Positions 1,555 to 44,423 are shown, numbered from the stretch's first letter. The stretch is 64,000 nt of DNA from an uncultured Anaerolineales bacterium (GCA_964461715.1 CAYWVR010000001.1:14400-78399), one strand, 5' to 3'. A program made the numbers and translations. The notes: a model not told the origin generated them from the sequence alone.

Positions 1555-1560
1555 AGACCC

Positions 1561-6080: not shown

Positions 6081-6095
6081 CCCAAGGAGCTTCCC

Positions 6096-7082: not shown

Positions 7083-7085
7083 CCC

Positions 7086-7775
7086 GTGGACGCCCCCCCG
7101 AGTGCCTCCTCCCGCGTGCTTCTGCCGGCGGTGTGGTGCGTGTGGCTGGCGGCGTGGCTCGTGCCCGCATTGCTGATCGCGCCGCACCTGGACGTCGTGC
7201 CCGCGTGGGTGGGGGCGGACGCGGCCCCGGCGGCGACGATGGCCGGGGCGGTCGTGTTCCTGGCGGCGCTCTGGCCGTTTTGGCCGGCGTGGGCGGGTCC
7301 CGTGAACGGGCGGATTCAGGCCCGGTGGGTCGGACTCGGCGTCCTGGAGCTCGCGACGCTCCTGGCCTTGGCCGCCCCGTTCGTCCTGGTGGCCCGGGCG
7401 GTGGGCAGCCGGGCGGTCGAGGTCACCTGGGTCGCGCTCGGATTGGCGGTGGCGGGCGCGCTGGGCCTCGGGTTCCGGATCGCGTGGGGTGGATGCGGAC
7501 CGGCGGCCGGACGGTGGCTGATGATGGCGGCGATGCTCCTGGTGGCCCTTCCCGTAGGCCTTGCGTACGTCGTCGCGGAGACCATGAACATGGCCCTGGT
7601 GCGCGTTTTCGAGGCCGGGCCGATCGCGGCGTCGATGTACGTGGCGCTCGAAGGGGCGCCCGAGACGACGTGGCGTCTCTTCACGGGTCTCGTTCTCTGG
7701 CCCGTGGCGGGCGCGGTGCTCGTGGCCGTCGGCCTCTCAGAGCAGGCGTGGCGGTATCGGCGCGGGGAGGGATGA
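7086..7775 (+). CDS. Hypothetical polytopic inner-membrane protein (Trp/Ala/Leu-rich, ~6 TM)
   Basis: ORF overlaps the ftsQ stop and shares its strand. Composed of hydrophobic helices. No recognisable domain. Confidence 0.45.
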   Translation: MDAPPSASSRVLLPAVWCVWLAAWLVPALLIAPHLDVVPAWVGADAAPAATMAGAVVFLAALWPFWPAWAGPVNGRIQARWVGLGVLELATLLALAAPFVLVARAVGSRAVEVTWVALGLAVAGALGLGFRIAWGGCGPAAGRWLMMAAMLLVALPVGLAYVVAETMNMALVRVFEAGPIAASMYVALEGAPETTWRLFTGLVLWPVAGAVLVAVGLSEQAWRYRRGEG

Positions 7776-11420: not shown

Positions 11421-11449
11421 TTGACAGGTTTTGAGGCAGGCGCGATAAT
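11421..11449 (+). promoter_or_regulatory. Near-consensus sigma-70 promoter (TTGACA-17 nt-GATAAT) ~200 nt upstream of the DUF1559 gene
   Basis: TTGACA at 11421-11426 and GATAAT at 11444-11449 with exactly 17-nt spacing. Confidence 0.45.
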
Positions 11450-11655: not shown

Positions 11656-12603
11656 ATGAAACGTCGTGCGTTTACTCTGGTCGAGCTCCTCGTCGTCATC
11701 ACCATCATCCTGATGCTCATGGGCATCCTGATTCCGGCGGTGTTTGACGCACTGGAGCAGGCCCGCCGCACGCAATGTGCGAGCAATCTCAGCCAGATCG
11801 GCAAGAGCTGCCGAACCTGGGCCTCGTCCCACCGACAGGCGTGGCCGGACGTTTTCACGTCCGATTCCGCCGAGTGGGACGACGTCGGCAACACCCGGGT
11901 CGACGAGTACGACCCCGCCACGGCGACCGAACAGCCGAGTATGGTCCCCGAGGACGAGCCGGACGACGGCGATCCGATCAACTCGAACACCGGGAACTTC
12001 TGGCGGCTTTGCAGCGGCATGGGGCTGGACCCCGAGATCTTCATCTGTCCGTCGCAGAGCAGCCATCAGCCCGACCAGGTGGTCGACTACACGCAGGTCC
12101 GGGATTTCCGCGGTGAGAACTTCGTCAGCTACTCCTACCAGAACGTCTTCGGGGCCTACAAGCTGACCGAGGCGTCCGGCAAGGCGGCCCAGCTGGCTGT
12201 CGCCGCCGACGCCAACCCTCAGCGCCAGGACTTCTACGGGTCTGCCGAGTTAGTCACGGACCAGTACCTCGCCGGCGAACCGAAGTTCCAGCCGTCCGAC
12301 GCTGCCGACGAGTGGAACCAGGACGTCGATGCCATCACCGATCCCTGGGACCTGAACAGCCCGAACCATCAGTTTGCCGGACAGAACGTCCTCTATCTGG
12401 ACGGTCACGTCCTTTGGCAGGACCATCCTTACTGCGGCTCGCAGTGGGACAACATTTGGACCTCCAAGGACCTGACGGTGACCGATTCGATCGATCCGAC
12501 CGACATCACGTCGCTCCAGGGCTTTGTCGACACGGCGTCCTACACGACGAACGACGAGGGTCTGACCGCCGGCGCGATCGGCGACTCATTCCTCGTGCCG
12601 TAG
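11656..12603 (+). CDS. Prepilin-type N-terminal cleavage/methylation domain protein with C-terminal H-X9-DG (DUF1559) domain
   Basis: [25 protein letters not shown] class-III leader. C-terminal ...[10 protein letters not shown] motif. GGAGG RBS 8 nt upstream. Confidence 0.8.
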
Positions 12604-12629
12604 GGTTGGACCTAGAGGCAGGCGCTTCC

Positions 12630-12675
12630 GGCGGCCTCGGCTCCTTGCGAGTCGGGGCCGCCGCTCTTTTTTCTT
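12630..12675 (+). terminator. Intrinsic terminator after the DUF1559 gene
   Basis: GGCGGCC...GGCCGCC stem (12630-12662) followed by GCTCTTTTTTCT. Confidence 0.6.
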
Positions 12676-12733
12676 CTGAAGGCTACACGGGCCCCTATAA
12701 TGGCCGGACTTGTTCCACAGGTGGATGCAGCGC

Positions 12734-14440
12734 ATGGCAGAAGAGGTGCGACAACCGGCGGTCCTTGGCATCGACGTGGGCACGAGCGGCATCAAGCTGC
12801 TGGTCGTCCCTGTCGACGGGACCGCGGAGCCGCGCGTCAGCCGCGCCGGTGTCCGCGTCCGCCGCGCCCCGGACGGGACCAGCGAGATCGATCCGGCCGC
12901 CTGGTGGCGGGCCGTCGTCCGGGCCGCCCGCGGGCTTGATCTCGACGGGCTGCGCGTCGTCGGCGTCGGGACGAGCACGCTCTTTCCGGCGCTGGTGGCC
13001 CTGGATGCCCGGGGTCGGGCCCTGCGGCCGGCGGTCCTGTATGACGACGCTCGCAGCGGTCCCCAGGCCCGGGACCTGGCCCGGCGGCCCCTGACGAGCC
13101 CGGCCGTCCAGCACCTGCTGACCGGCAACCGGGTGCGGCCGGGGACCATCAGCCTCTCCAGCCTCCTGTGGCTGCGGGAGACGGAGCCGGAGGTGTATCG
13201 GCAGGCGTCCCTGTTCGGCCATGCCGGGACGTACCTGGGGCACCGGCTGACCGGCCGCTTTGCCATCGACGCGACCAACGCCAGCCTGACGGGCCTCTAT
13301 GCGGCGGCGTCGGGCGAGGCGTGGTTGCGGGGGGTGTGTGCGGCTGGCGGCTTGGGGCCCCACGAGCTGCCCCGGCGGCTCGGGCGGCTCACTTGCCGCG
13401 CCTACCTCGACCTGCTGGCCCGGGGCCGGCCGGAGCTGCGGGATTCGTTCTTGGCGGACCTGCCGCCCGGCGTCGACGCCGAGTCGCTCCTGGCGGAGCA
13501 CGTGGCCCTGCCGGAGCGGGGCTGGGTGGCGGCCCTGCTGGATGCGGTGGGCCTGGCGCAGGCGCGGCTCCCGGAGGTCGTGTGGCCGACCGAGCGGCTC
13601 GGTGAGCTGACGGAAGAGGCCGCCGAGGCCTTGGGCCTCGATGCGGGCCTGCCGGTGGCGGCGGGGGCGGGCGACACGGTCTGCGGGTGCCTGGGCGTGG
13701 GCCTGGAGGCCGCCGACGAGGTCGTGGCCCTGTGCGGGTCGACCGACTGCATCGCGGCCGTCCAACGGTCGGCGGTCTTCTCGACGCGGACCGTCAACAT
13801 GGCGTACCTGGACGAGGAGACGTGGGTGGCCGTGGCCCCGATGAACGCGACGGGGTCGGCGGTGGATTGGGTAGCCCGGACGCTCCTCGGAGGGGGGAAG
13901 CGACGGTTCGACCGTCTGTTTGCCCTGGCGGCCGAGGCGGAGGCGGGATCGGGCGGCGTAGTGTTCCTGCCGTATTTGGCGGGGGAGCGAAGCCCCGTCT
14001 ACGACCCGGACGCCAAGGGCATCTTTTTCGGCCTGACCCTGGCGACGGGCCGGCCGGAGATGGCCCGGGCCGTGCTCGAGGGTATCGGCTTCGGGCACCG
14101 CCAGATTCTCCGGCACGTGGATTTGAGGGCCGGCGCGCCGGTGCGGCGGGTCCGGGCGGCGGGGGGCGGGACGGCGGCCCCGCTCCTTCGGCGCATCCGG
14201 GCTGATGCCGCCGACCGTACGTACCTTTACGCCGGCATGACCGAGGTCACCGCCCTGGGGGCGGCCTTGCTGGGCGGCGTGGCGGCGGGCGTCTGGGGGA
14301 CATGGCAGGAGGCGGCGGCGGAGGCGCGCCGGCGGACCGACTGGGAGGCCGTCGAGCCCGACCCCGACGCCTGGCATTGCCTCAAACGCAACTACGAGGT
14401 CTACACGAGCCTCTACGGGGCCCTGGAGCACTGTTTCTAG
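12734..14440 (+). CDS. FGGY-family carbohydrate kinase (xylulokinase/glycerol-kinase-like)
   Basis: VLGIDVGTSGIKLLVV N-terminal ATPase motif. FGGY C-terminal domain (GGGTAAPLL). TATAAT at 12695-12700 upstream. Confidence 0.8.
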   Translation: MAEEVRQPAVLGIDVGTSGIKLLVVPVDGTAEPRVSRAGVRVRRAPDGTSEIDPAAWWRAVVRAARGLDLDGLRVVGVGTSTLFPALVALDARGRALRPAVLYDDARSGPQARDLARRPLTSPAVQHLLTGNRVRPGTISLSSLLWLRETEPEVYRQASLFGHAGTYLGHRLTGRFAIDATNASLTGLYAAASGEAWLRGVCAAGGLGPHELPRRLGRLTCRAYLDLLARGRPELRDSFLADLPPGVDAESLLAEHVALPERGWVAALLDAVGLAQARLPEVVWPTERLGELTEEAAEALGLDAGLPVAAGAGDTVCGCLGVGLEAADEVVALCGSTDCIAAVQRSAVFSTRTVNMAYLDEETWVAVAPMNATGSAVDWVARTLLGGGKRRFDRLFALAAEAEAGSGGVVFLPYLAGERSPVYDPDAKGIFFGLTLATGRPEMARAVLEGIGFGHRQILRHVDLRAGAPVRRVRAAGGGTAAPLLRRIRADAADRTYLYAGMTEVTALGAALLGGVAAGVWGTWQEAAAEARRRTDWEAVEPDPDAWHCLKRNYEVYTSLYGALEHCF

Positions 14441-14461
14441 CGACGAAGGAGCACCATTAGC

Positions 14462-17400
14462 GTGTCGAGGAAACGCATTGGATTCCTGGTGGCCGCGGTC
14501 GGCGTGGTCGTGCTCCTTTCGAGCTGGGGACGCGTCGCGGACTGGACCGAGGCCGTGCTGCGCGGCGAGGAGCAGGTCCGTTCCAAGAAGGTCGTTTACT
14601 GGACCACCTCCGGCTCCCCCGAGGTCAACCTGAAGCGGGCCCGCCAGTTCGAGCAGATGTACCCGGACATCAACGTCGAGCCGAACTTCCGCGAGACGGG
14701 CGGCATCCAGGACATCCTCTTCGTCTCTTTCCTCAGCGGCAACCCGCCCGACTTCATGGGCAACACGAAGGTCAACGAGCTCCGCAAGTACATCCTCATG
14801 GGGGGTGTGCGGCCGCTGGACGACCTGATGCGGCGCGAGGACGCCTTCCTCCGCAACCAGTACCTGAAGCGGGGCCTCAAAGCCTACCGCGAGGTCCGCG
14901 AGTACGAGCCCGGCGAGCTGATCCAGACGGACGTCCTGCGGCGCGAGAATCCGAATCTGGAGGCCGAGCTGCTGGGCCATCGCCTGCGCGAGTGGACCGA
15001 GTCGTTCCGCGAGCGCCAGGGCCGCGCCCCCACCGAGGCTGAAACGGACGACGCCCGGGCTCGCCTCGCCCGGGCCCTGGCCGCCGAGACACAGGACCTC
15101 TACTTCCGCCAGCACCTCATGGGCGAGGCCCGCCTCTTTCGCTTCAAGCTGAATCCCGAGGACGCGTATCTCCAGAACCTGGAGGCCAACCCCCTGGAGG
15201 CGGCGCGCCTGCTGCACATGAACGGCAAGGCCGTTGCCTTCCGCGACATCGCCATGCCCCGCATCCTCACCTACAACAAGCGCCTCTTCCGGGAGGCGGC
15301 GACGATGTTCCCGGAGGCGGGGCTGGTGGACGGTCATGGCGACCCGGTCCCGCCGTCGACGTGGCTCGAATTCTACCGGACGGCCCGGCTCCTCTCGGAG
15401 TACGGTCGCCGCGCCGCCGTCGACCGCGGCCTGGCCGAGCCCATCTGCTACGGCCTGACGATGCAGGGCCAGCGCGACCGCGACCTGATGCGGGGCATCT
15501 GGCCGCTCGCCCGACGGGCCGGGTCCATGCAGTTCGAGTACCGCGGCGACACGGAGCGCGTGGCCCGCCACTTCGACCGCGAGACCGAGGCCGGCCGCGA
15601 GGCCGCCCGGGCCTTCGGCGACCGGCCCATCGGGTACTTCGATTACGAGGACGACGCTTACCTGGCCGCCTTCGCCCTCCTCTATAAGCTCCGCCAGGAC
15701 GGCTACGTGCTGCCGGGGGTCGAGTCGCGGCACTACGAGGACGTGCGGACGGCCCTGGCGTCCGGTCAGGCGGGCATGTTGCTGGACGGTTGGCACGCGG
15801 CCCTGATCGGGGCGGAGCGCGTGCCGTGGGCCGCCCAGGACCTCGGCAGCGCCCCCGTGCCCTTGCCCTATCACGACGTCGACCCCGACGCGGGCTGGCC
15901 CGCCGAGGCCGTCGCGAAGGAGAAGGAGGAGCTTTCGGAGCTCCTCTCGCTCGACGAGGCGGGTGTCACGCTGCCTCCCGGCAACAAGCTCCCCCAGTCG
16001 GCCGCCGACAACGTCACGCTCTTCACGAGCCTCTGCCGCGACCCCGACGCCGCCTGGGAGTGGAACCACTTTGCCAACCGCAACATCGAGGTGATGAAGA
16101 CCGAGACGCGGCGCGGGACGGTGCGGATGGAGCGGGAGGCCGTGGCCCACATCGGCGACCCGGAGTGGTTCCCCTATCCCTACCAGGAGCAGGTTTACGG
16201 GATCATCGAGCACCACTGCGCCATGTGGCCGGAGCGGCCGCTGCACGGGCCCGTCGAGGTGCCCAACGAGCGGGAGATCTTCTACCGCTGGTTCTACCAG
16301 ACCGACACGAACGACCTCGGCCTCATCCTCACCCGGGCCCGCGAGCAGCTCCAGACCTTCTCCGACGCCGCCAACGCCGACCTCGCCCGACGCATCCGGG
16401 ACGGATTGGTGCGGCCGGAGAACTGGACCTTTCCCGATTTCGAGCCGCAACGGGCCGAGGCGTTCTTCGCCCGCCAGCAGAACCCGGAGGTCGACCCGGA
16501 CGCCGAGGCGCGCCTCGGCGAGGCCCGGGCCAAGCTTATCGCCTGGGCCCGGGCGCACCCCGAGGCGGGACTGCTGAACGAGGCGGGGACGGACATCCGC
16601 GAGGACATCTGGCAGTGGAAGGCCAGCACGTCCCCGTGGCAATTGCTGTGGATCCCGGGCCTGATGGCGGGGGTGGTCCTGGGCTGGTTCGCGTGGACGG
16701 GCCTCCGGCACGCCTTCGGCCGGAAGCCGACCGAGGGACGCTTGCTCGGGCGGGCTCGCCGCGGATGGTGGGGCTACGTCTTCGCCCTCCCGGGCATGCT
16801 CGTCGTCTTCGCCTTCGCCATCTACCCGTCGCTCTACCAGTTCTTCCTGGCCCTGCACACGGGCGACGGGCTCGGGCCCATGCGCTACGTGGGCCTGGGG
16901 AACTTCCATCGCATCTTCACCCGGGACATGACCTTCTGGACGACGGTCCTCCCGAACACGGCCGTTTTCATGGTGCTGGTGGCCGTGGGGCAGATCGTGC
17001 TGGGCCTGTTGTTCGCCTCGCTCCTGAACCTGCCCTTGAAGGCCAACCGTCTCTACCGCCTCCTGTACTTCATCCCCCTCGTGACGAGCCTGGCGATCGT
17101 CAGCGTCATCCTCATCGGCCTCCTGAAGGGCGAGGCCTCGGCCCTCAATGCCCTGCTGACCTCGCTCTCGTGGTGGCACCTGGCGCTCGCGGCCCTGGCG
17201 CTGGTGGCCCTGGGCCTGGTGCTGACGCTCCTGTTCACCCTCTGGCTCCGGCCGCAGGGCTCGGCCGCGTCACGGGTCGCGCAGGGCGTGGTGCTCCTGG
17301 TCCTCCTCGCCGTAACGGGGCTGGGCCTGCACGCTCTCCTGGCCGGCAACAGCCAGATCGCCGCGTGGCTGGGCTTGGCGCGGCCCCTCGGGAACCTCGC

Positions 17401-17944
17401 CTTCTGGCTGGGCCTGGCGGACGAGCCCGGCAAGCAGGTCGACTGGCTGGGCCAGGACGTGGGCCTCTACACGATCGCCGGCGTCGCCATCTGGCACGGT
17501 CTGGCCATGCGCATCATCCTGCTTCTGGCCGGGCTCCAGTCGATCAACCCCGAGCTCTACGAGGCGGCCAAGGTGGACGGGGCGGGGCCCTGGAGCCGGT
17601 TCTGGCGTGTCACCTTGCCGGAGATCATGCCCATCCTCATCATTATCGCCTTCATGGCCTTCATCGCCGCCGCCCGCGCCTTCAGTCCCGTCTACGTCCT
17701 GACCGAGGGCGGCATCAATCACTCCAGCGAGGTCGTCGCCACCTACATCTTCAAGAAGGGCTTCACGAAGCCGGAGGGCACCGAGCCCGACCTCGGCTAC
17801 GCCTCCGCCCTCGGCATCGTCTACAGCGGCATGCTCGCGGTGCTGACCCTGGCGAACGTCATCATCATCGTCCGACGATGGAAACGCCGCCTCCAGATGG
17901 AGCGGCAGGCCGGCGGGCCCGCGACCGAAAGGGCCAAGGCATGA
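14462..17944 (+). CDS. Fusion protein: very large extracellular solute-binding domain (~730 aa) fused to a MalF/UgpA-type ABC permease domain
   Basis: GTG start after an AAGGAG RBS. N-terminal signal anchor. C-terminal 6-TM permease with the EAAKVDGAGPWSRFWRVTLPEI 'EAA' loop. Continuous 1160-aa ORF. Confidence 0.7.
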   Translation: MSRKRIGFLVAAVGVVVLLSSWGRVADWTEAVLRGEEQVRSKKVVYWTTSGSPEVNLKRARQFEQMYPDINVEPNFRETGGIQDILFVSFLSGNPPDFMGNTKVNELRKYILMGGVRPLDDLMRREDAFLRNQYLKRGLKAYREVREYEPGELIQTDVLRRENPNLEAELLGHRLREWTESFRERQGRAPTEAETDDARARLARALAAETQDLYFRQHLMGEARLFRFKLNPEDAYLQNLEANPLEAARLLHMNGKAVAFRDIAMPRILTYNKRLFREAATMFPEAGLVDGHGDPVPPSTWLEFYRTARLLSEYGRRAAVDRGLAEPICYGLTMQGQRDRDLMRGIWPLARRAGSMQFEYRGDTERVARHFDRETEAGREAARAFGDRPIGYFDYEDDAYLAAFALLYKLRQDGYVLPGVESRHYEDVRTALASGQAGMLLDGWHAALIGAERVPWAAQDLGSAPVPLPYHDVDPDAGWPAEAVAKEKEELSELLSLDEAGVTLPPGNKLPQSAADNVTLFTSLCRDPDAAWEWNHFANRNIEVMKTETRRGTVRMEREAVAHIGDPEWFPYPYQEQVYGIIEHHCAMWPERPLHGPVEVPNEREIFYRWFYQTDTNDLGLILTRAREQLQTFSDAANADLARRIRDGLVRPENWTFPDFEPQRAEAFFARQQNPEVDPDAEARLGEARAKLIAWARAHPEAGLLNEAGTDIREDIWQWKASTSPWQLLWIPGLMAGVVLGWFAWTGLRHAFGRKPTEGRLLGRARRGWWGYVFALPGMLVVFAFAIYPSLYQFFLALHTGDGLGPMRYVGLGNFHRIFTRDMTFWTTVLPNTAVFMVLVAVGQIVLGLLFASLLNLPLKANRLYRLLYFIPLVTSLAIVSVILIGLLKGEASALNALLTSLSWWHLALAALALVALGLVLTLLFTLWLRPQGSAASRVAQGVVLLVLLAVTGLGLHALLAGNSQIAAWLGLARPLGNLAFWLGLADEPGKQVDWLGQDVGLYTIAGVAIWHGLAMRIILLLAGLQSINPELYEAAKVDGAGPWSRFWRVTLPEIMPILIIIAFMAFIAAARAFSPVYVLTEGGINHSSEVVATYIFKKGFTKPEGTEPDLGYASALGIVYSGMLAVLTLANVIIIVRRWKRRLQMERQAGGPATERAKA

Positions 17945-19737
17945 CACGAGACGGTCCCCGCATCGACAAGGCCCTCCTCCACCGCTACCGGGCGGGCTTC
18001 TGGACCTGGATTTGCTACCACTGGCCCATGGTCCTCGTGCACCTCGCCCTCCTGACCCTCGGCCTCGTCAACCTCTACCCCTTCATCTGGATGCTCGGCA
18101 CGAGCTTCAAGTCCGAGCAAGAGGCTTCCATCGAGAAGCTCCGGCCCGTGCCCGGGCCCAAGTACAAGCTGGCCGAAGGGTTTGACCTGGAGACGGTCGT
18201 GCCCGCCGCCCTGGAGCCCGACCTTGCGGCCGCCGAGGGCGAGGCTCGCCTCGATGCCCTCAACCTCGTCCGCCGCAAGCTCGAGGTGCTTCACGACCTC
18301 CAGCGACGGGCCTGGGCCGAGCGCGTCGAGCACGAGGTCAGCTTGGTCGTCGGTCCCCTGGACGATGAGATCGTCCGCCTCAAGGCCGAGGCGGACCGTC
18401 TGGCCCGGGTGTGGGACGCCAAGCGCGAGGCCGCCCGGCGAGGCGAGGTGCCCTGGCCCGAGGTCGACGCATTCGAGGCCCGGCTCGACGCCGCCCGACG
18501 CGCCTACGAGACGGCTCGCGACGCCGCCACCGGGGCCGCCGTGCGCGGGCTTCTGGAGCGCGGCGTGCTTGTGGAGGACCCGGTCCATGACAGCCTCTGG
18601 TTCTCCGAGGCGGGTTTCGCCCGGACCTGGCCCAAGGCCCTGACCCCGCGCCAGAGGGCCGCGTCCGAGGCCCTCTGGGACCATTTCACCCTCGGCCCCA
18701 TCCGCTACGCGAACACCGTGGCGGTTGAGCTCGAGACCGCCCGCCGCCAGATGGCCGAGTGGGCCACCATCGCGGGCGGCATCCTGGTTCCCGTCGGCGA
18801 AGCGGTCGAGGGCGAGACGGTTTATCGCCTGGCGGAGGGGGGGCGCGGCCGGATCTACCGCGACCTCTATCCCCGCCAGATTCTCGCCCTCTGGCTTATG
18901 CACGCCGAGAACACCCGCCGTGCCGAGAGCCGCAACACCTTTGCCACCGACCGCTGGAGCCCGGAGGATTACGGCAAGTATTTCGGTCTGGCCGACGTCG
19001 AGCAGGCCCGGGCGGAGCTCCGGGAGGCCGTCGAGGCCGGGTACCTGGCCGACGGGACGGCCCAGCCGATTAACTACTGGGTCGTGCTGAAGGAGGAGAA
19101 CTTCCTGCTCCACTTCCTGACGAGCCTCCTCATCACGAGCGTCGTTGTGGTGGCCTCGATCCTGCTCTCCTCCATGCTCGGATACGCCCTGGCTCGCGGC
19201 TCGTTCCCCGGCAAGATGCTCGTGCTGGGCGTCCTGATTGCGGCCTCCATCCTTCCGACCGAGGCCCGCATCATCCCCATCTTCAAGATGCTCCTGGCCG
19301 TGGGGGCCCTGGAGAACCTGTGGGGCATGGTGGCCTGGCTCTCGAGCGCCGGCGTGGGCCAGACGCTCCTGATGGCGGGCTTCTTCCTGACGCTTCCGAA
19401 GGAGGTGGACGAGGCGGCCGAGGTGGACGGGGCGGGCATCTTCCGGAAGTTCTTCGACATCGCTCTGCCCATGGCCCGGCCCATCGTCATGACCGTGGGC
19501 CTCTTCGCGTTCCTCGGGGCATGGAACAACTTCCTCGTGCCGCTCCTGTGCACCATCTCCCGCCCCAGTATGCAGCCGCTGGCCGTCGCCGTGTACAGCT
19601 TCCAGCAGGGCCACCCCGGCAAATGGCACCAGATCAACGCCGCCGCCGCCGTCATGATCATCCCCGTCATCGTCATGTTCCTGTTCGTGCAAAAGCATGT
19701 CGTCAAGGCCATCGCCGTCGGGGCGGTCAAGGGATAA
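17941..19737 (+). CDS. ABC sugar permease (MalG/UgpE-like) with a ~300-aa periplasmic insertion between TM1 and TM2
   Basis: ATGA overlap with the upstream gene. TM1 YPFIWMLGTSFK, EAA loop (EAAEVDGAGIFRKFFDIALPMARP) and C-terminal TMs. Confidence 0.75.
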   Translation: MTRDGPRIDKALLHRYRAGFWTWICYHWPMVLVHLALLTLGLVNLYPFIWMLGTSFKSEQEASIEKLRPVPGPKYKLAEGFDLETVVPAALEPDLAAAEGEARLDALNLVRRKLEVLHDLQRRAWAERVEHEVSLVVGPLDDEIVRLKAEADRLARVWDAKREAARRGEVPWPEVDAFEARLDAARRAYETARDAATGAAVRGLLERGVLVEDPVHDSLWFSEAGFARTWPKALTPRQRAASEALWDHFTLGPIRYANTVAVELETARRQMAEWATIAGGILVPVGEAVEGETVYRLAEGGRGRIYRDLYPRQILALWLMHAENTRRAESRNTFATDRWSPEDYGKYFGLADVEQARAELREAVEAGYLADGTAQPINYWVVLKEENFLLHFLTSLLITSVVVVASILLSSMLGYALARGSFPGKMLVLGVLIAASILPTEARIIPIFKMLLAVGALENLWGMVAWLSSAGVGQTLLMAGFFLTLPKEVDEAAEVDGAGIFRKFFDIALPMARPIVMTVGLFAFLGAWNNFLVPLLCTISRPSMQPLAVAVYSFQQGHPGKWHQINAAAAVMIIPVIVMFLFVQKHVVKAIAVGAVKG

Positions 19738-19995
19738 GGACGTCCGGCCGTCGAGGGGAAGGGGTGATGAGGCATGCGCCGGCGCCGCATCGCCGCCGCC
19801 ACGGATGACGGGGTTGGCGTCCGGGGCGGCGCGACGGGCGAGCCGGTGGCGGCCCTACCCGCGGGACGCGGCGTCAAGCGGCTGGTCTTCTCGCCGGACG
19901 GCCGCACCTTCACCAGTGCGAGCGACGACACGACGCGGCTGGCGTGGGAGAAGCCGAAGGACCTGGCCGAACATTCGCAACCGGCCGAGGGACGC

Positions 19996-21033
19996 TTACC
20001 GGAGCACGAAGTACCCGTGCCCGACCACATCGAAGACCTTCTCCTCGAGGATCGCGAGGCCCGCCGCGCGGAAGAGGGCGCGCCACTCGGCGGCGGTGCC
20101 GATCGTCTGGTTCGTGAGGTCGTGGTAGAGGTGGTGCTCGAGGAAGGCGGTGGGGCTCTTGCGGAGCTTTTCGTGGGGCTGCTTGCAGAACTCGCCGATG
20201 TAGAGCAGGGCCCGTGGGAACTGCGTCCGGAGCGACCTCAGGAGACCCACGATCCGATCCGGGCCCTCGTCCAAGTACTCGTGGTACGTATCGACGGCGG
20301 TGACGGAATCGACGTCCGCGTGCTTTTCTGCGACGGCCGCCAAGTCGAACATGTCGCCGTCGCGGACCTCGATCCGCTCGCTGAAACGGCTTTCGGCCAA
20401 GACCTCACGGGCGTAGCGGACCGTGGGCGGGTCGTTGTCGACGCCCACGGCCCGGATCGCCGGGTCCGTCTCGGCCAGGTAGAACAGGAACGCCAGGTCC
20501 CCGCAGCCGAGGTCCAGGACCTTGCGGGCCCCGTGCCGGTGCAGCATGTCCGCGAGGACGGGGTAGGGCAGCGTGCGGCAGAGTTGGCCGCTGCCGCGCC
20601 CGACGTACTTGCCGATCCTCTGGACGTCGTCGGGATAGGCGGCCTCGCCCCTGAGGAGGTCGGGCAGGGCGTCGAAAACGGGGGCGTAGGCGTAGGTCAG
20701 CTCGAAGAAGCCCCGGGGCTCGCCCATCAGGCGTCTCAGCTTCGGCAGGGCCCGGACCCCGCCGCCCTCGACGCGCACCAGGCTCAGGCCGTCGAGGTAG
20801 TCGAGGACGCTCTCGAGGACGCGGCGGTCGAGCTTGCCCTTGCCTGCCAGGTCCTCCAGGGCGACCGATTCGGTCTCCAGGAGCCGGTCCAGGACGCCCG
20901 TCTCCAGCAGGGCCCAGAGACACCCGCAGGTGGCGTAGCCGCGGACGTAGGGCAGGGCCTCGTCGAATCGCCGCTTCAAGCGGATGCTGCGGCGAAAGCC
21001 CAGCAGCTTCATCACTTCGAGGGCTTGGCTCAT
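19996..21033 (-). CDS. Class I SAM-dependent O-methyltransferase-like protein (with N-terminal dimerisation/wHTH domain)
   Basis: VLDLGCGDLAFLFYLAE motif I and an acidic motif (VDND). Start MSQALEV overlaps the upstream stop by ATGA. Confidence 0.75.
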   Translation of the reverse strand: MSQALEVMKLLGFRRSIRLKRRFDEALPYVRGYATCGCLWALLETGVLDRLLETESVALEDLAGKGKLDRRVLESVLDYLDGLSLVRVEGGGVRALPKLRRLMGEPRGFFELTYAYAPVFDALPDLLRGEAAYPDDVQRIGKYVGRGSGQLCRTLPYPVLADMLHRHGARKVLDLGCGDLAFLFYLAETDPAIRAVGVDNDPPTVRYAREVLAESRFSERIEVRDGDMFDLAAVAEKHADVDSVTAVDTYHEYLDEGPDRIVGLLRSLRTQFPRALLYIGEFCKQPHEKLRKSPTAFLEHHLYHDLTNQTIGTAAEWRALFRAAGLAILEEKVFDVVGHGYFVLR

Positions 21034-21791
21034 GGCGTCGGCTCCTCGGCGGGGGCGGCCTCGATGACGAGGGCGTCGTAGCGGGCCCGGACCCGCTCTC
21101 CGGGCGACAGGACGAGGAACCGCTCCGGGTCCCATCGTCCGTCCAGGCCCTCCTGCACCAGCCCCAGGTCCCCTTGGACGTCCATGAACTCCCATCCGCG
21201 CTCGGCGCAGATCTCGCGGACCCGCTGCTTCAGCTCTGGCGGCCGGTGGAAGGGGAACTCGATCAAGGCCCCGTGCGTGTAATGCTCCTCCCACCCGCCC
21301 ATGACCTCCGCGAGGTACCGGGCGTTCTCCTCGCCGTACTTCGCGACCCGCTCGTCCCACTTGGCCCGCCTGTACTCGGGACCCAAGCCGCTCTTGGCCA
21401 TCGGCTCAACCTGTTCGGCCCGGTCGCGGCATTCGAGCCACCCGCTCGAGTACCAGTACGTGCCCGGGTGCCGCTCGAAAAGCTCTGCGTACCGTTCCTT
21501 GGAGCCCAGAAGGAGCGTGATGCAGTCGTGGGCTCGCGGGACGACCAAGGGCACGCGACCCGCCCGGATGCCGTCCATGGCGTTGTTGCAGAGGCCGTAG
21601 CCTAGGACGAGGGCGTCGTAGCGGTCCGGGTCGGTGTCGTCGACGAGGGGCTGGAGTCGGTCGCGGCAGAGGTCGCTGTTGTCGTGGAGGCCCTGGGGCA
21701 GCAGGACGACGTCGACGACGGCCTCGGCCCGGGCGGCGCAGCGGTACATTTCGCGCCGAAGCACGTCGCAGGCCACCACCCGGAGTCGCAT
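21030..21791 (-). CDS. DUF1638 domain protein
   Basis: ...ALVLGYGLCNNAM...PRAHDCITLLLGSKERY..., resembling the DUF1638 signature. TGATG overlap with the GH3 stop. Confidence 0.55.
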   Translation of the reverse strand: MRLRVVACDVLRREMYRCAARAEAVVDVVLLPQGLHDNSDLCRDRLQPLVDDTDPDRYDALVLGYGLCNNAMDGIRAGRVPLVVPRAHDCITLLLGSKERYAELFERHPGTYWYSSGWLECRDRAEQVEPMAKSGLGPEYRRAKWDERVAKYGEENARYLAEVMGGWEEHYTHGALIEFPFHRPPELKQRVREICAERGWEFMDVQGDLGLVQEGLDGRWDPERFLVLSPGERVRARYDALVIEAAPAEEPTP

Positions 21792-23515
21792 CACGCGTCC
21801 TTCCGTTCGCGGGCGACCCTGTAACACGCGCTGCCGGGGAACCGGCGCTCGAATTCCACGTCGCCGACGAGGAACTTGTGCTTGTACTGCTCGACACGTC
21901 CGCCCGTCCGGTCGATGGCCTCCGTGTCGTAGGCGTGCCACGTGCCCGGCGGGAGCGTCCGGACGCGGATGGGGTCGAGGCGTCCGCTGGCCCGTTTGGC
22001 GGCGTACTCGATGTTCAGGTCCACGAGGGCCCGCTCCACGGCTTCGGCCAGGGCCGGCCCGCGTTCGGGCGCCACGGCGGCCTCCTCAACGAGGAGGTCG
22101 TAACAGGGCGCCTCGTCCCAGACGGGGCAGAGGCAATAGCTCTCGACCGGCAGGCCCAGGGCCGCCACGGCCCCGTTGACGGCGGTCACGACCTGGTGCT
22201 CGGTCAGCTTCTCGCCCGTCAGGCTGGAAACGTGCCCCCCTTTGTTCAGGAACCGGATGACGGGGACGGGACCGGACCGGCCGGTCACCTCGACCAGATC
22301 GCCGATATCGTAGCGGAAGAGTCCGGAGGGGGTCGTCAAGACCAGGAAGTACCGTTCGCCCACCTGCGTCTCGTGCGGCAGGAGCGTCGGAGCGTCGGGC
22401 CGGCCCGCCTCCTCCTCGGGCAGGAACTCGAACACGGTGCCCCGGACGTCCAGCACGCCGGCCGATCCGTTCGTCTGGAGGGGCACGGAGAAGCGGCCCT
22501 CGCTGGCCAGCAGGCCGATGTCGCGGACCGGGACGTCGCCCCACACCTCGGGCATCCGCCGCAGGTAGAGCTCCAGCGTCCCGCCCTTCCAGGTTCCGAT
22601 CAGCGGCACGTCCCAGGTGTCCTTCGGGTAGAGGTGGCCGGTGGCCCGGACGATGCGTTCCAGGGCCCGGGCGCGGTCGGGCATGGCCTTCAGGGCCCGC
22701 TCGATGCGGGCCCGGTGCTCCCGGTCGAGGGCGAGGTCGGTCCGCAAGGTCCCGTCTGAAAGGTCGCGCAGCAGGTCGTCCTTTGCCTCGTCCATCGTCC
22801 GCGCGAGGCCCAGCAGCGTGCTCGGATTGGCCGTCAGCGGCATCAGTCGCCGCACCTGGAGGCCCAGGCGGCACGCGAGATAGTACTTCGTGGCCGTGGT
22901 GCCGCTATAGGCGCTCTCGGGGGGCATGATGTAGAGCCAGCGGATGCTGCGTCGCTGGGCCTGGGCCGTCAGGCCGCTCATGGCCCCGGCGGGTACGCCG
23001 GAGGGCGTCGACTCCTCGTCCATGCGGCTGGCGAGTTGGAGGAGCTTGGCGCCGAAGGCGTCGTAGTGGTCGTTGAGTGCATGGACGCCCCAGACGTGCC
23101 ATCCCTCGCGGTAGGCCTTCAGGAGGGCGTCCGTCACGGGGATGTACTTCGGCGTGCCCGTCGTGCCGCTCGTCAGGGCGAACATGTGAACCGGGGTGTC
23201 GGGGCCGAAGAGGGCGGAGAGATCGCCCTCGCGGACGCGTTGGATGTAAGGCTCGGCCCTCTCGTAGCCCGCGATGGGCATGGCTCGGCGCAGGTCGTCA
23301 AGGGTGCGGACGCGGTCGAGGCCGTGATCGCGGGCGAAGTCGCTGCCCTCGACGATCTCGAAGATGCGGCGGAGGACGCGGGACTGGATTTCCGGCCCGC
23401 GCTGGACGGCCCGGTTCCAGCAGGCGACGTGCCGACAGGCCTCCAGGCGCAGGGGCGTCCAGAGGACCCGTCGCATCCGGATGGCCAGCGGGGTACCCAC
23501 GGTCGCTCCCGTCAT
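21791..23515 (-). CDS. GH3-family acyl-acid amido synthetase (adenylate-forming)
   Basis: FALTSGTTGTPKYIPVT phosphate-binding loop typical of GH3/JAR1-like enzymes. ~570 aa. The ATG at 23513-23515 overlaps the upstream hydrolase stop (ATGA). Confidence 0.75.
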   Translation of the reverse strand: MTGATVGTPLAIRMRRVLWTPLRLEACRHVACWNRAVQRGPEIQSRVLRRIFEIVEGSDFARDHGLDRVRTLDDLRRAMPIAGYERAEPYIQRVREGDLSALFGPDTPVHMFALTSGTTGTPKYIPVTDALLKAYREGWHVWGVHALNDHYDAFGAKLLQLASRMDEESTPSGVPAGAMSGLTAQAQRRSIRWLYIMPPESAYSGTTATKYYLACRLGLQVRRLMPLTANPSTLLGLARTMDEAKDDLLRDLSDGTLRTDLALDREHRARIERALKAMPDRARALERIVRATGHLYPKDTWDVPLIGTWKGGTLELYLRRMPEVWGDVPVRDIGLLASEGRFSVPLQTNGSAGVLDVRGTVFEFLPEEEAGRPDAPTLLPHETQVGERYFLVLTTPSGLFRYDIGDLVEVTGRSGPVPVIRFLNKGGHVSSLTGEKLTEHQVVTAVNGAVAALGLPVESYCLCPVWDEAPCYDLLVEEAAVAPERGPALAEAVERALVDLNIEYAAKRASGRLDPIRVRTLPPGTWHAYDTEAIDRTGGRVEQYKHKFLVGDVEFERRFPGSACYRVARERKDA

Positions 23516-24558
23516 CCCGCCTTCTGGCGGGGTTCCTCGGCGGCGTCCGGGCCGCACAGATACCGGTCGAAGAACGCCACCAGGTGGGCGGCATAGGTCG
23601 CCCGCTCGGCGACGACGGCCTGGTTATGCTTGGCCCCGGGGCAGATCCAGAGGTCTTTCCCGCCGGGCTTCTGCTCGTAGAGGGCCCGCGTGTGCTCCGG
23701 CCGCACATACGTATCGCGCTCGCCGCTGATAAACAGCATGGGCACATCCCTCAGCCGCGCCAAGGCCTTTTTCATGCTGGGGAAGCGGCAGCGGAGCTTC
23801 AGCTCGACGTAGAGCATGGTCATGGCCCGCATGAAGCGGCAGACGGGCGGGGAGGCGAGGTTGACGCGGGCGAAGATCTGGCCCCACCGCGTGATGAGCT
23901 GCTCGATCGTGTAATCGGTCGAGAAGACCCCGTCAAGGGCCAGGCACCGGATCGCGGGCTCCAGTACCGCCGCCACCGCCGCGGCGCTCGCCCCGCGACT
24001 GACGCCCAGGACCCCGAGGCCCCGCCGGCCGAGGTCGCGGCAGCTCTGGACGTAGGCGACGGCGGCCCGCACGTCGTTGACCTCGTGATGGCTGGGCCAG
24101 TGGCGGGGCTCGAAGTGCGGCGGGGTGAAGCTGCGGCCGTGGCCGCGAAAATCGAACGTGAAGACCTCGTAGCCTGCCTCGACGAGCGGCCAGGCGTACC
24201 GTCCCGCGCTGAACATGTCGCTGGCGAACTCGTGGCAGAAGATCACGAGGCCCCGTTCGGGCGCCCCCTTCGGACGCTCGACGAACATGCCCCGCAGGCT
24301 CCGCCCGTCCAGGCTCGGGAACGCGACCACTTCGCCCGTGGGAGGCTCGTAATCCTGGAGGTTGGCCGTGACGGGCAGCGGCGTGTCGAGGAAGATGTTC
24401 ACGCAAAGACGCAGATACCGGGCCAGAATGACCATCAGGACCAGCGCCGCCAGGCTGAGGACGGCAATGATCACCAGAGCGGGCCAGTGGTCGGCGAGGG
24501 ATGCGGGCGCGGATTCCGCGAGAAACCCGGTGCTCGGCCCTATCCATGCCGCTCTCAC
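23512..24558 (-). CDS. Alpha/beta-fold hydrolase with N-terminal TM anchor (possible thioesterase/lipase)
   Basis: N-terminal hydrophobic helix. HGRSF and GVSRG (GxSxG) nucleophile elbow. Confidence 0.65.
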   Translation of the reverse strand: MRAAWIGPSTGFLAESAPASLADHWPALVIIAVLSLAALVLMVILARYLRLCVNIFLDTPLPVTANLQDYEPPTGEVVAFPSLDGRSLRGMFVERPKGAPERGLVIFCHEFASDMFSAGRYAWPLVEAGYEVFTFDFRGHGRSFTPPHFEPRHWPSHHEVNDVRAAVAYVQSCRDLGRRGLGVLGVSRGASAAAVAAVLEPAIRCLALDGVFSTDYTIEQLITRWGQIFARVNLASPPVCRFMRAMTMLYVELKLRCRFPSMKKALARLRDVPMLFISGERDTYVRPEHTRALYEQKPGGKDLWICPGAKHNQAVVAERATYAAHLVAFFDRYLCGPDAAEEPRQKAG

Positions 24559-24639
24559 GGGTCGGCCTCCTGCGAAGTACCCGGATACCTCCGTAGCCGG
24601 GCGAGCGGGTGCAGAGAACGGCCGCGCCGGCGCCCCGGA

Positions 24640-25932
24640 TCAGGACTCCGCGTACTTCCTCACGATGAGGGAATCGTTCTGGCCGCCGAAGCCGAACGAG
24701 TTGGACATGGCGACCTCGACCTCGGCCTGGCGGGCGGCGTTCGGCACGTAGTCCAGGTCGCACTCCGGGTCCGGGTTCTCCAGGTTCATGGTCGGCGGCA
24801 GAATCCCGTCGCGGATGGCCATGACGCAGGTCATCAGCTCGGTGGCCCCGGCGGCGGCGATGAGGTGCCCCAGCATGCTCTTGACACTCGAGACGGGCAC
24901 CTTCGTGGCCGCATCGCCGAAAACGACCTTGATGGCCCGGGTCTCGACCTTGTCGTTCTCGGTCGTTCCGGTGCCGTGGGCGCTGATGTAGTCGATCTGG
25001 CCGGGGGCCACGCCCGCGTTGTCGAGGGCCATCTGCATGGCGGCGGCCGGGCCGCGACCCTCCGGATGGATGTCGGTCATGCGGTAGGCGTCGCTGCTGG
25101 TTCCGAAACCGATCAACTCGCCGTGGATGCGGGCCCCGCGGTCCCGGGCGGCCTCCAGCTCCTCCAGGACCATGATCGTCGAGCCCTCGCCGAGGACGAA
25201 CCCGGCCCGTTCTCGGTCGAAGGGGCGGCTGGCCCGCCAGGGCTCGTCCTTCGGCTCCGTGGAGATGGCCGTCAGCAGGTTGAAGCCCGTCACTCCGAGG
25301 GGGTGGATCATCGAGTGCGTGCCCCCCGCGAGCATCCGGTCCGTCCGCCCGGTGCGGACCAGCTCCAGGGCCTCGCCGATGGCCTGGGTGCTGGCTGCAC
25401 AAGCCGTCAGACACGAGAAGACGGGCCCGCCGAGGCCGTACTCGCTCGCCAGGTGATTGGCGGGCATATTCGGCTCCTGCTCCAGCTCCCGCATGGCCTG
25501 GAACGTCTCCTCGCCCTTTCGGGCGAAGCGGGCGATGTCGAGGTCGCCGTCGGCGCCGAGGGCGTAGAGTGTGGAGACGGCCAGGCTCTCGAAGTCGATG
25601 GCCCCTTCGCCGCTCCCGAGGTAGATGCCGAACCGGTCCCGGTCCACGGCAGCCAGGTCCAGCCCCGAATCGTCCAGGGCCATCCGCCCGGCGGCGGCGG
25701 CGAAGCGGACGTTGCGCCCCCCGGCCGCGTACCGGGACGGGTCGCGAACGTACGCTGCGAGGTCGAATTCGGGCACTTGGGCCGCGAACGTCGTCGGGAA
25801 CGTCGACGCGTCGAAGATCTCGATGGGCCGGATGCCGCTCTTGCCCGCCACCAGGCCCGCCCACGTCTCTTCGTACGTGAAGCCGAGGGGCGTGATCGAG
25901 CCGATGCCCGTGATGACGACGCGTCGCTTCAT
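24640..25932 (-). CDS. Beta-ketoacyl-ACP synthase (FabF/KAS II-like), catalytically complete
   Basis: MKRRVVITGIGSITPLG. Cys in LTACAAST, His in SAHGTGT, Lys/His in VKSMLGHL. Confidence 0.85.
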   Translation of the reverse strand: MKRRVVITGIGSITPLGFTYEETWAGLVAGKSGIRPIEIFDASTFPTTFAAQVPEFDLAAYVRDPSRYAAGGRNVRFAAAAGRMALDDSGLDLAAVDRDRFGIYLGSGEGAIDFESLAVSTLYALGADGDLDIARFARKGEETFQAMRELEQEPNMPANHLASEYGLGGPVFSCLTACAASTQAIGEALELVRTGRTDRMLAGGTHSMIHPLGVTGFNLLTAISTEPKDEPWRASRPFDRERAGFVLGEGSTIMVLEELEAARDRGARIHGELIGFGTSSDAYRMTDIHPEGRGPAAAMQMALDNAGVAPGQIDYISAHGTGTTENDKVETRAIKVVFGDAATKVPVSSVKSMLGHLIAAAGATELMTCVMAIRDGILPPTMNLENPDPECDLDYVPNAARQAEVEVAMSNSFGFGGQNDSLIVRKYAES

Positions 25933-25969
25933 GGTCCCTCGCGCGGCGGGACGGGCCCGCACGCCTCTC

Positions 25970-27298
25970 CTATCGGTTCAGGCGGACGACGGTGGCGGCG
26001 GTCTGGCCGCCGACGCCCCCGCTCGTGATGAGGGCTAGGTCGGACTCCATCGCCGCAGGTTCGCCCCGAACGAGCCTCAGGGCCACGTCGGGGGCGGGAT
26101 CGTCACAGTTCAGGACAGGCGGGACCTGGCGGGTCCGGGCCAACTTGCACAGGACCGCCAGGTCCGCGGCCCCGCTGGCGGCGCCCATGTCGCCCGTGAC
26201 GCCTTTGGTGGCGGTCACCGGCACGCGGGAGGCGGCCGACCCGAGGGCGGCCTCCAGGCCCGCGGCCTCGCTCGTATCCTGCGGCGGATAGGCCGATCCG
26301 TGGGCCACGACGGCCCCCAGGTTCCCCGGATCGACACCGGCGGCGTCCAAGGCGGCCTCGACCGCGAGGCGCGTGGCCCGTCCGTCGGGGTCGCACGCGT
26401 TGACGCCCGCGACCGTAACGGAGGCCCCGCAACCGAGGATTTCGCCGTAGACGCGGGCCTCGCGGGCCTCGGCTCCCTCCGCCGACTCCAGCATCAGGAT
26501 CGCCGCCCCTTCGGCCGCCACGAAGCCCGTCCGGGCGGCGTCAAAGGGTCGGGAGGCGGCCGCGGGGTCGCCCTCGGTGGTGGCCAGGCGGCCCAGCATC
26601 TGCATCCGCAGCATCAGGACGGGGTTGACGCGGCTCTCCGCGCCCCCCGCGAGCATCCGGTCGGCCGCCCCGCGCGTGAGGATCCGCGTCGCCTCGTCCA
26701 GGGCCAGCAGCCCCCCCGCGTCCCCGCACGTCAGCGAATTCGAGGGCCCCCGGGCGTCCCAGAGCACGCCCGTGTGGCAGGTGTGCATGTTCGGGAGGTA
26801 CTTGAGGAGCCACAGCGGGAACATCTGCGGGATGCCCCGCTCGCCCCAGCCCGTCATATCGAACTCGCCGTCCTCGGCGGCAGCCCGGACCGGACGGGCG
26901 ATGTCCTCGATCTCGGTGGGGATGAAGTTCGTGCCGAAGACGAGGCCGAACCGTGCGGGGTCGATGTCCGGAAGAACGGGCTCCTTGGCCTTGAAATCGC
27001 CGATTCTGAGGCCGGAATCGAGGATTGCCAGGTTTGAGGCGGCCACGGCCATTTGGATGTCGACGGCCATGACCTTGGCGTTCTTCTTGATGTAGCGGCT
27101 CTGGTCCTTGCGGACGCCGGCGGCGGGGTCGAACTCCAGGACCTCCCCGGTCACGTGGCTCGAAAAGGCGGACGGATCGAAGCGCCGGAGGGTCCGGACG
27201 GCACTGCGGCCGTCGCGAACGGCCTCGGCGAGGGCCCCGGCCCCGACGCCGGGGGGGCTGACCACCCCCAGCCCGGTGATCACGACACGACGTTCCAC
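25970..27298 (-). CDS. KS-like partner / chain-length-factor-like beta-ketoacyl synthase paralogue (second catalytic His replaced)
   Basis: MERRVVITGLGVVSPPG thiolase fold. First His retained (VAHGSAY). The GHL motif reads GDMGAASG (His to Asp). Confidence 0.7.
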   Translation of the reverse strand: MERRVVITGLGVVSPPGVGAGALAEAVRDGRSAVRTLRRFDPSAFSSHVTGEVLEFDPAAGVRKDQSRYIKKNAKVMAVDIQMAVAASNLAILDSGLRIGDFKAKEPVLPDIDPARFGLVFGTNFIPTEIEDIARPVRAAAEDGEFDMTGWGERGIPQMFPLWLLKYLPNMHTCHTGVLWDARGPSNSLTCGDAGGLLALDEATRILTRGAADRMLAGGAESRVNPVLMLRMQMLGRLATTEGDPAAASRPFDAARTGFVAAEGAAILMLESAEGAEAREARVYGEILGCGASVTVAGVNACDPDGRATRLAVEAALDAAGVDPGNLGAVVAHGSAYPPQDTSEAAGLEAALGSAASRVPVTATKGVTGDMGAASGAADLAVLCKLARTRQVPPVLNCDDPAPDVALRLVRGEPAAMESDLALITSGGVGGQTAATVVRLNR

Positions 27299-27314
27299 GG
27301 TCCGGGTCGACTCC

Positions 27315-27815: not shown

Positions 27816-27893
27816 GGGGCGCTCCGCCGCTTTCGCTGCCGCGCGGCACGCGCCGCCGGCGGCTCGGGAGTCCGGCCGTCGGGCCGACGGGCC

Positions 27894-28292: not shown

Positions 28293-28349
28293 CTCGCTTG
28301 ACCTCCACCTAATGTGTGTCGCGCCCGTCCCCGCCCCAAGATCGTCCGC

Positions 28350-44343: not shown

Positions 44344-44423
44344 GATGGGTTCGGCTTGATTCGCGGCGCGCCCCTGCTAGAATGCCGCCCGCTTCCCTGC
44401 GACACGAAAGGACGAGACGACCG

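Follow-up and report, generated by a model that had tools for sequence, protein, structure and literature searches.

Positions 14,462 to 19,737 of a 64,000-nucleotide stretch of DNA from an uncultured Anaerolineales bacterium (GCA_964461715.1 CAYWVR010000001.1:14400-78399), the whole of which is referred to here as the window, hold two overlapping plus-strand genes that appear to encode the membrane part of an ATP-binding cassette (ABC) importer with a built-in binding domain. The first gene (14462..17944, 1160 aa) begins with a GTG codon, preceded by 10 nt by a Shine-Dalgarno-like AAGGAG (14446..14451) found by direct reading of the sequence. According to Pfam, homologues, AlphaFold2, Foldseek and codon-position composition, its product joins a transmembrane (TM) anchor, a solute-binding protein (SBP) ectodomain, a second TM helix and a permease core of the MalF/SugA type. 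The second gene (17941..19737, 598 aa) encodes a permease of the MalG/UgpE/SugB type, assigned from Pfam, NCBIfam, AlphaFold2 and Foldseek. Its ATG at 17941 sits in the stop codon of the fusion gene (catga), and this ATGA overlap of 4 nt, which distant relatives keep, suggests translational coupling. A preliminary description of the window had noted the 1160-aa open reading frame (ORF) joining an SBP-like ectodomain to a MalF-type permease, and the overlapping MalG-type gene with a long insertion between TM1 and TM2; both observations were borne out, the insertion measuring ~330 residues.

The DNA of the window is ~70% G+C, and long ORFs are common in several of its frames, including a 1494-aa antisense ORF at 12695-17179 that overlaps the fusion gene. 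The tendency of high-GC DNA to yield such spurious ORFs is what speaks for regarding the fusion as an assembly or sequencing artefact, in which a frameshift or a lost stop codon near 16600-16700 merged separate SBP and permease genes. Several observations stand against this explanation. The G+C content at third codon positions (GC3) of the fusion ORF, read in its own frame, is 0.92-0.97 in every 300-nt block; across the fusion junction (16262-16861) it remains at 0.94-0.95, and the phase shifts only at the start of the next gene. Three assemblies, one from NCBI and two from Logan runs, contain the identical protein. Homologues at 36-63% identity formed 45 clusters in a search of 5.8 billion proteins; nearly all of these are single ORFs of 920-1100 aa with both Pfam domains, and they come from unrelated samples whose NCBI, ENA, JGI and Logan assemblies carry the labels Phycisphaerae, Planctomycetota, Brocadiia or 'PVC group' (Planctomycetota-Verrucomicrobiota-Chlamydiota). 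Alignments of these proteins run unbroken through the junction, where a TM helix is conserved; in this region Y772 and F785 do not vary, P732 hardly does, and F774 is likewise invariant or close to it. Full-length relatives of the ectodomain are 850-1090 aa long, which is the fused size. The GC3 phase, together with conservation in ~45 clusters and in 30 related loci (26 from genomes and 4 from contigs), rules out the artefact, and the fusion is genuine, as the preliminary description had proposed. Because the GC3 phase, the Pfam matches, the ~45 homologous clusters and a confident structure model all raise it above chance, the plus-strand ORF at 14462-17944 is clearly a real gene, despite the high-GC shadow ORFs.

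Both halves of the fusion protein were recognised by Pfam within the same polypeptide. SBP_bac_1 matched in two stretches with 43.2 bits against a cutoff of 26, the better stretch covering residues 266-488, and BPD_transp_1 matched residues 979-1129 with 48.3 bits against a cutoff of 26.4; relatives of the protein also match SBP_bac_8. The profile check of the N-terminal 730 aa that had been proposed earlier therefore gave an SBP family above its cutoff, and an SBP fold was also found by Foldseek. The AlphaFold2 model of the protein has a predicted local distance difference test score (pLDDT) of 85.9 and a predicted TM-score (pTM) of 0.79.

The polypeptide starts with a basic N-terminus and a hydrophobic helix (residues ~5-26, 14474..14539), delineated by hydropathy, AlphaFold2 helices 3-20/22-33 and the invariant W22, which may be an uncleaved signal anchor or a signal peptide. 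The solute-binding domain proper (residues ~40-600, 14579..16261) is an alpha/beta domain with a CUT1/MalE-like fold, as indicated by the SBP_bac_1 match (E=6e-11), by Foldseek and by a model in which pLDDT is mostly >90. Its N-lobe region carries a charged helical insertion (residues ~120-215, 14819..15106; AlphaFold2 helices 120-139, 156-186 and 192-210), defined from our alignment A1 and from segment lengths, which is confined to the closest clade; most relatives have 23-31 residues at the same place. The SBP fold is followed by a helical extension conserved throughout the family (residues ~603-698, 16268..16555; AlphaFold2 helices 603-612, 619-646, 662-673 and 679-698, with conserved motifs in alignments A1 and A2), which a linker of ~25 residues (~699-724) joins to the membrane. 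A TM helix (residues ~725-753, 16634..16720) then takes the polypeptide back to the cytoplasm and leads into an Arg-rich loop there; the fusion junction lies here, as placed by the AlphaFold2 helix 725-753, conserved residues and GC3. Neither the isolated C-terminal helical extension nor the helical insert of the SBP domain gave a Pfam match. The extra size of the ectodomain is owed to these helical additions, some of which are particular to this lineage, with no sign of an enlarged cleft for the ligand. Since the ectodomain sits between the N-terminal helix and the second TM helix, both ends of the modelled binding domain are probably anchored in the membrane, unless helix 1 is cleaved. Another family member, P0033, has an insertion of ~120 aa right after the N-terminal TM helix (alignment columns 85-200), so the region ahead of the binding domain also accepts lineage-specific additions.

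When the ectodomain was compared with the PDB by Foldseek, the matches were carbohydrate SBPs, namely Xanthomonas MalE, Thermococcus TMBP, the chitin-oligosaccharide binder NagB2, GacH, RafE, BxlE and UgpB, with probability 1.0 and TM-scores (normalised to the target) of 0.6-0.73. An ectodomain-only HMMER search of 1.84 billion representatives returned just 35 proteins at E<1e-3. Of these, 22 are strong matches (E<1e-10), and the ones exceeding ~700 aa in length all fall within 850-1090 aa; free SBPs (420-560 aa) turn up only at E>1e-9. Given so few proteins, and strong long matches that are all of fused size, the ectodomain family as sampled by sequence is small, very divergent and known in fused form alone.

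The C-terminal part of the fusion protein (residues ~769-1149, 16766..17908) is a six-helix permease core of the MalF/UgpA/SugA type, identified by BPD_transp_1, NCBIfam, phmmer and Foldseek. Its closest relative by sequence (phmmer) is SugA (9e-17), followed by AlgM1 and MalF; by structure it matches SugA of LpqY-SugABC with a Foldseek TM-score (target) of 0.75-0.81, and the best NCBIfam models are UgpA, GlcT and MalF, all below cutoff. The EAA coupling loop, LYEAAKVDGAG...LPEIMP (17555..17632), is present in the sequence, with L1032, A1035, D1039, G1040, R1046 and P1053 invariant in the family. Two extra hydrophobic helices occupy the loop between core TM3 and TM4 (residues ~894-961, 17141..17344), as judged from a gap in A1, hydropathy and a locally low pLDDT of ~60. 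These Leu/Ala-rich helices belong to this protein only; the 16 other sequences displayed in A1 are all gapped at this position. Tandem Repeats Finder detected within this segment, at 17171-17221, a 15-nt unit repeated in 3.3 copies, which suggests that the helices arose recently by repeat expansion.

The partner protein was likewise modelled with confidence (pLDDT 86.6, pTM 0.78, with the insertion at 95-98). BPD_transp_1 matches residues 412-591 only (52.5 bits, cutoff 26.4), the best NCBIfam models are GlcU, UgpE and MalG, and Foldseek relates the core to SugB, MalG and AlgM2, with TM-scores (target) of 0.52-0.61 against SugB/MalG. TM2-TM6 and a conserved P3 'scoop-loop' region (19102..19731) are recognised by Pfam and Foldseek, and the EAA loop of the partner (residues 488-514, 19402..19482), DEAAEVDGAG...ALPMARP, has E491, A492, A493, D496, G497, A498 and G499 invariant. 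A distant relative of the MalG-type permease, P0101 (799 aa, from an ENA contig of 11.5 kb), carries an alpha-amylase (PF00128) domain fused to BPD_transp_1, and on its sequence would be an ABC permease that incorporates a glycoside hydrolase.

TM1 of the partner (~20-55) ends in a MalG-like NLYPF.WM.GTS.K motif, and between it and an NYW...TS motif ahead of TM2 (~388-) lies the insertion (residues ~56-387, ~330 aa, 18106..19101). As the topology of the core is conserved, with a cytoplasmic EAA loop, and the N-terminus is basic, the insertion is placed in the periplasmic loop P1. It opens with helical hairpins (residues ~100-206, 18238..18558; AlphaFold2 helices 100-122, 126-140, 142-166 and 172-206) that vary from 29 to 216 residues across the family, and these are followed by two modules of winged-helix-like design. 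Module B (residues ~233-300, 18637..18840), recognised by its helix-helix-helix-strand-strand pattern in the AlphaFold2 model and by profile matches, is missing from the shortest family members. Module C (residues ~309-376, 18865..19068) bears the motif PRQ..L...EN.RR.E.R...Y...A..EL in alignments A3 and A4. Over 56 clusters the partner ranges from 371 to 755 aa, and the shortest forms retain module C alone; judged from these sequences, module C is the universally conserved part of the insertion.

A profile of module B (A5) searched against the PDB matched winged-helix proteins only (PefI 1.8e-4, MarR 6e-4, the LexA DNA-binding domain 2e-3, SelB and eS25), and a second profile, A6, matches MarR, eS25 and LexA. 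The A5 match runs over H1-H2-H3-wing, and the AlphaFold2 model has the same order of elements as the winged-helix domains of MarR, LexA and PefI. Module C alone had no PDB sequence match; compared with module B by hhalign it gave a probability of 67%, over helices 2-3. Pfam returned nothing for the isolated insertion, and the A6 profile retrieved nothing from the 5.8-billion-protein set, not even family members, so that search is uninformative. A winged-helix fold for the P1 modules is thus probable, on modelling and profile grounds, and not proven. The modules differ from MarR, LexA and PefI in that they lie, by homology-based topology, in a periplasmic permease loop and match no Pfam family, and DNA binding is not expected of them. 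If they serve for docking outside the cytoplasm, this would be a use of the winged-helix fold for which we know of no description among ABC transporters. The lengths of the insertions in the two subunits co-vary in 21 pairs (Spearman 0.41, p=0.07, and 0.62, p=0.003), a correlation that is confounded by phylogeny and was not used as evidence.

The preliminary description had also pointed out that no ATPase gene accompanies the permeases. This absence was confirmed for the 64-kb window: tblastn with a manually entered E. coli MalK query gave a best E of 1.2, motif scans found no Walker A sequence in any of the frames, and the sole LSGGQ-type match falls outside the inferred genes. Nor does a MalK-like ATPase lie beside the pair in 29 of the 30 related loci; in the remaining one, L020, weak ABC-ATPase-like matches (26-28% identity) 3-4 kb away are probably unrelated. 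The absence is not a peculiarity, however, because CUT1 systems are well documented to share ATPases, and commonly use one encoded in trans (MsmK/MsiK; PMC4519317). The coupling-loop residues of both subunit families are invariant, which argues that an ATPase is still required.

Taken together, the Pfam matches, the EAA loops and the structural matches to SugA and to SugB/MalG agree with the earlier assignment of the locus to the type I (CUT1-like) importers. We estimate a probability of about 0.72 that the two proteins are the membrane part of a type I, CUT1-like (MalFG/SugAB-like) ABC importer in which the SBP is built into the MalF-like subunit. The gene overlap and the homology to MalFG/SugAB suggest that the fusion protein and its partner would form a 1:1 heterodimer. 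Each transporter would then carry one tethered binding domain, exported and kept beside its own translocator, where it would catch a carbohydrate-type solute and dock on the periplasmic face. The P1 insertion might be the scaffold on which the tethered domain docks or is positioned. In the maltose system, MalG-P1 and MalF-P2 touch the N-lobe of MalE (PMC6906923), and the docking role is proposed here because the insertion occupies the MalG-P1 loop while the MalF-type subunit is without a P2 domain. Transport would be driven by a dimeric ATPase of the MalK/MsiK type, engaging the EAA loops and encoded at another place in the genome. In this lineage, an FGGY kinase encoded immediately upstream may phosphorylate the sugar after import.

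At the 30 loci, the partner gene directly follows the fusion gene wherever downstream sequence exists, and all-against-all clustering of ORFs found no conserved neighbours other than the two genes and their antisense shadows. Most sampled genomes show a single locus of the pair. In the window, the gene preceding the fusion gene by 21 nt (12710..14440, +) encodes a xylulokinase-like FGGY carbohydrate kinase, with Pfam FGGY_N and FGGY_C domains and XylB as the best NCBIfam model (278 bits, below its cutoff of 380). Its synteny with the pair is confined to the nearest relatives (L001, L002 and the identical contigs), and it is probably the first gene of the transporter's transcription unit in this lineage only. 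Upstream of the kinase lies a gene for an N_methyl/DUF1559 protein recognised by Pfam (11656..12603, +). Since an intrinsic-terminator-like hairpin (15-bp stem and T-run, 12629..12663) stands right after it, between it and the kinase gene, and a near-consensus sigma-70-like promoter site (11 of 12 matches, 11421..11449) stands ahead of it, the DUF1559 gene appears to be its own transcription unit. The preliminary description had set the importer next to both genes; both do lie upstream, but the DUF1559 gene is transcriptionally separate and, like the kinase gene, is linked to the pair in the closest relatives only.

Downstream of the pair, a plus-strand ORF at 19774-21081 (435 aa) was considered as a third component and rejected as spurious, as it is antisense to methyltransferase and DUF1638 genes that are called on the identical contigs and correspond to window positions 19996-21033 (-) and ~21030-21790 (-). 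The 1494-aa ORF at 12695-17179 and a 983-aa ORF at 23077-26028 are probably high-GC shadows too. The minus-strand run at ~19996-28500 encodes, besides the methyltransferase and the DUF1638 protein, a GH3-family (acyl-adenylate/amido synthetase) protein, an alpha/beta hydrolase and two ketosynthases, and a matching contig extends it with a FabA/ApeI-like dehydratase and an acyl carrier protein; the run looks like an aryl-polyene-like or unusual lipid/polyketide biosynthesis cluster. At the other end of the window (355-7775) there is a dcw-type cell-wall cluster (ftsW/rodA-family, murG, murC, murB, ddl) followed by two ORFs, 6096-7082 (328 aa) and 7086-7775 (229 aa), which gave no Pfam match and occupy the usual ftsQ/ftsA/ftsZ position. 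Genes for a glycoside hydrolase family 10 (GH10) xylanase-family protein (32078-33367, +) and a GH94 enzyme of the cellobiose/chitobiose-phosphorylase type (44382-46892, +) lie further downstream. Together with the FGGY kinase they hint at hemicellulose or beta-glucan use, though they are 12-25 kb from the transporter and non-syntenic elsewhere.

Several of the fusion-bearing genomes (L001, L002, L006, L009, L010 and L022) are labelled Anaerolineales, Verrucomicrobia or Victivallales. The closest of them, L001 and L002, also encode N_methyl/DUF1559 proteins, which are typical of Planctomycetota. The taxonomic labels of fusion-bearing metagenome-assembled genomes may be unreliable.

Some of these results weigh against the importer reading set out above, or against parts of it. 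The ectodomain is very divergent, and its similarity to any solved SBP is marginal (E>=0.03), so that we infer ligand binding from its fold. As no ATPase was found in the window, and 29 of the 30 loci have none next to the pair, the energising subunit is assumed. The winged-helix assignment depends on E values of 2e-4 to 2e-3 and a secondary-structure pattern, and that the P1 insertion docks the tethered domain is something we infer purely by analogy. No clue to the substrate is conserved across the 30 loci, the FGGY kinase being linked in the nearest relatives only. Scores against NCBIfam equivalogs (MalF, MalG, UgpA, UgpE and others) were 48-85 bits against cutoffs of 261-392; as none reached its cutoff, the substrate is not assignable from them. 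The structural neighbours of the ectodomain and the kinase suggest a sugar or oligosaccharide, and the housekeeping-like contexts of the pair leave room for a recycling role.

Such a role, in which the same machine would act as a housekeeping or envelope-recycling importer of a non-nutritional or non-oligosaccharide solute (compare trehalose recycling by LpqY-SugABC, or UgpABCE), is the less favoured view of the substrate and in our judgement unlikely. It would account for the occurrence of a self-contained pair, mostly as a single locus per genome, in unrelated and often housekeeping contexts (alaS, oxaloacetate decarboxylase, dcw/lipid A genes), for the lack of a linked carbohydrate-active enzyme or regulator at any of the 30 loci, and for the fact that SugA/SugB and UgpA/UgpE are the best permease matches by sequence and structure. 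It fits less well with the xylulokinase-like kinase linked in the closest clade, with structural neighbours of the ectodomain that are mostly oligosaccharide binders, and with the GH10 and GH94 genes in the same window, distant as they are. Far less probable still is that the complex is mainly a sensor or regulator without transport, detecting a ligand or polymer and signalling across the membrane, or that its binding domain has degenerated into a structural lid. Such a function would suit the high divergence of the ectodomain, the failure to find an ATPase within the 64 kb, and the presence of winged-helix modules, which are seldom met with outside the cytoplasm; yet the permease cores are complete, the EAA loops invariant and the P3 loop conserved, which points to selection on ATPase coupling and translocation. 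Neither protein contains an output domain (kinase, GGDEF or cytoplasmic DNA-binding) recognised by Pfam, and the winged-helix modules, being on the periplasmic side by homology-based topology, would have no reach to cytoplasmic DNA.

Within the importer reading, a more specific picture can be drawn, which we offer tentatively and consider rather unlikely. The pair would be a 'cis-SBP' sugar importer specific to Phycisphaerae/PVC bacteria, in which the winged-helix modules of the MalG-like subunit replace MalF-P2 and clamp, position or gate the doubly tethered domain, and the helical expansions of the two proteins form a joint periplasmic stalk, possibly fitting the enlarged planctomycetal periplasm. 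The idea in the preliminary description that a tethered, oversized SBP suits a cell without free SBP diffusion, or one handling large oligosaccharides, is speculation.

In its general plan the system resembles E. coli MalFGK2-MalE and mycobacterial LpqY-SugABC, sharing with them a heterodimer of a MalF/SugA-type and a MalG/SugB-type subunit, EAA loops and a MalE-like (SBP_bac_1) fold; like MalF, the fusion protein has two extra N-terminal TM helices ahead of the six-helix core. It differs from both in that the binding protein is neither free nor lipid-anchored and is instead inserted between the extra N-terminal helices, where E. coli MalF has its short P1 loop joining TM1 to TM2, and in that no malK/sugC gene is in the operon. 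The P2-type domain of MalF is lacking, and the large periplasmic domain, which is winged-helix-like and helical, belongs to P1 of the MalG-type subunit.

The tethered SBP, which had been set against the separate lipoprotein SBP normal in type I importers, has a precedent on a sugar-type permease in the MalE-MalF fusion of Bdellovibrio bacteriovorus. As PMC6906923 describes the work of Licht et al. 2019, that fusion was shown to be functional, and the structure of its 388-aa MalE domain is PDB 6FFL. In both cases, as far as that description extends, a CUT1-type binding domain is covalently linked to the MalF-type subunit of a heterodimer, which fixes it at one per transporter. The present system differs in the size of its ectodomain (~690 aa, compared with 388 aa), in the ~330-aa P1 insertion of its partner and in having no adjacent ATPase gene. 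The ectodomain matches 6ffl with E=0.06-0.16, over ~70 N-terminal residues, and this marginal similarity suggests that the fusion described here probably arose independently of that in Bdellovibrio.

Type I importers with covalently linked binding domains are also represented by OpuA and GlnPQ of Lactococcus lactis, according to the accounts in PMC11065425 (citing van der Heide & Poolman 2002) and PMC8025302. The resemblance lies in a tether made of a short linker and a TM anchor, and in the high local concentration of the binding domain that results. Whereas those transporters are homodimeric, carry two or four small domains, take up compatible solutes or amino acids, occur in Gram-positive bacteria and have an ATPase gene in the operon, the present one combines one large MalE-like domain with a heterodimer in a PVC-group bacterium that has an outer membrane. 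The OpuA and GlnPQ binding domains belong to what we take to be structural cluster F, and no OpuA or GlnPQ chain was among the matches to the fusion protein in sequence searches of the PDB. This fusion family did not turn up in word searches of the literature.

The two genes of this planctomycete specify a familiar kind of transporter in an uncommon form, one that is genuine and conserved. What is new is the combination of an oversized, divergent binding domain between two TM helices with a MalG-type partner that carries periplasmic winged-helix-like modules, in a two-gene design conserved across a PVC/Phycisphaerae clade. Current annotations, which call such proteins either 'extracellular solute-binding protein' or 'ABC transporter permease subunit', are each incomplete. 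Fused binding domains have hitherto been mainly a Gram-positive theme, associated with amino acids and osmolytes; the family described here adds another instance of a carbohydrate-type SBP joined to an ABC translocator, the second of its kind, apparently of independent origin and much more elaborate, and is found throughout a lineage of bacteria with an outer membrane. A tethered MalE-like domain in a fixed 1:1 ratio, together with a structured P1 domain, offers a natural system for studying the control of SBP docking and release in type I importers. The family may also be relevant to the organisation of uptake in planctomycetes, whose periplasm is unusual.

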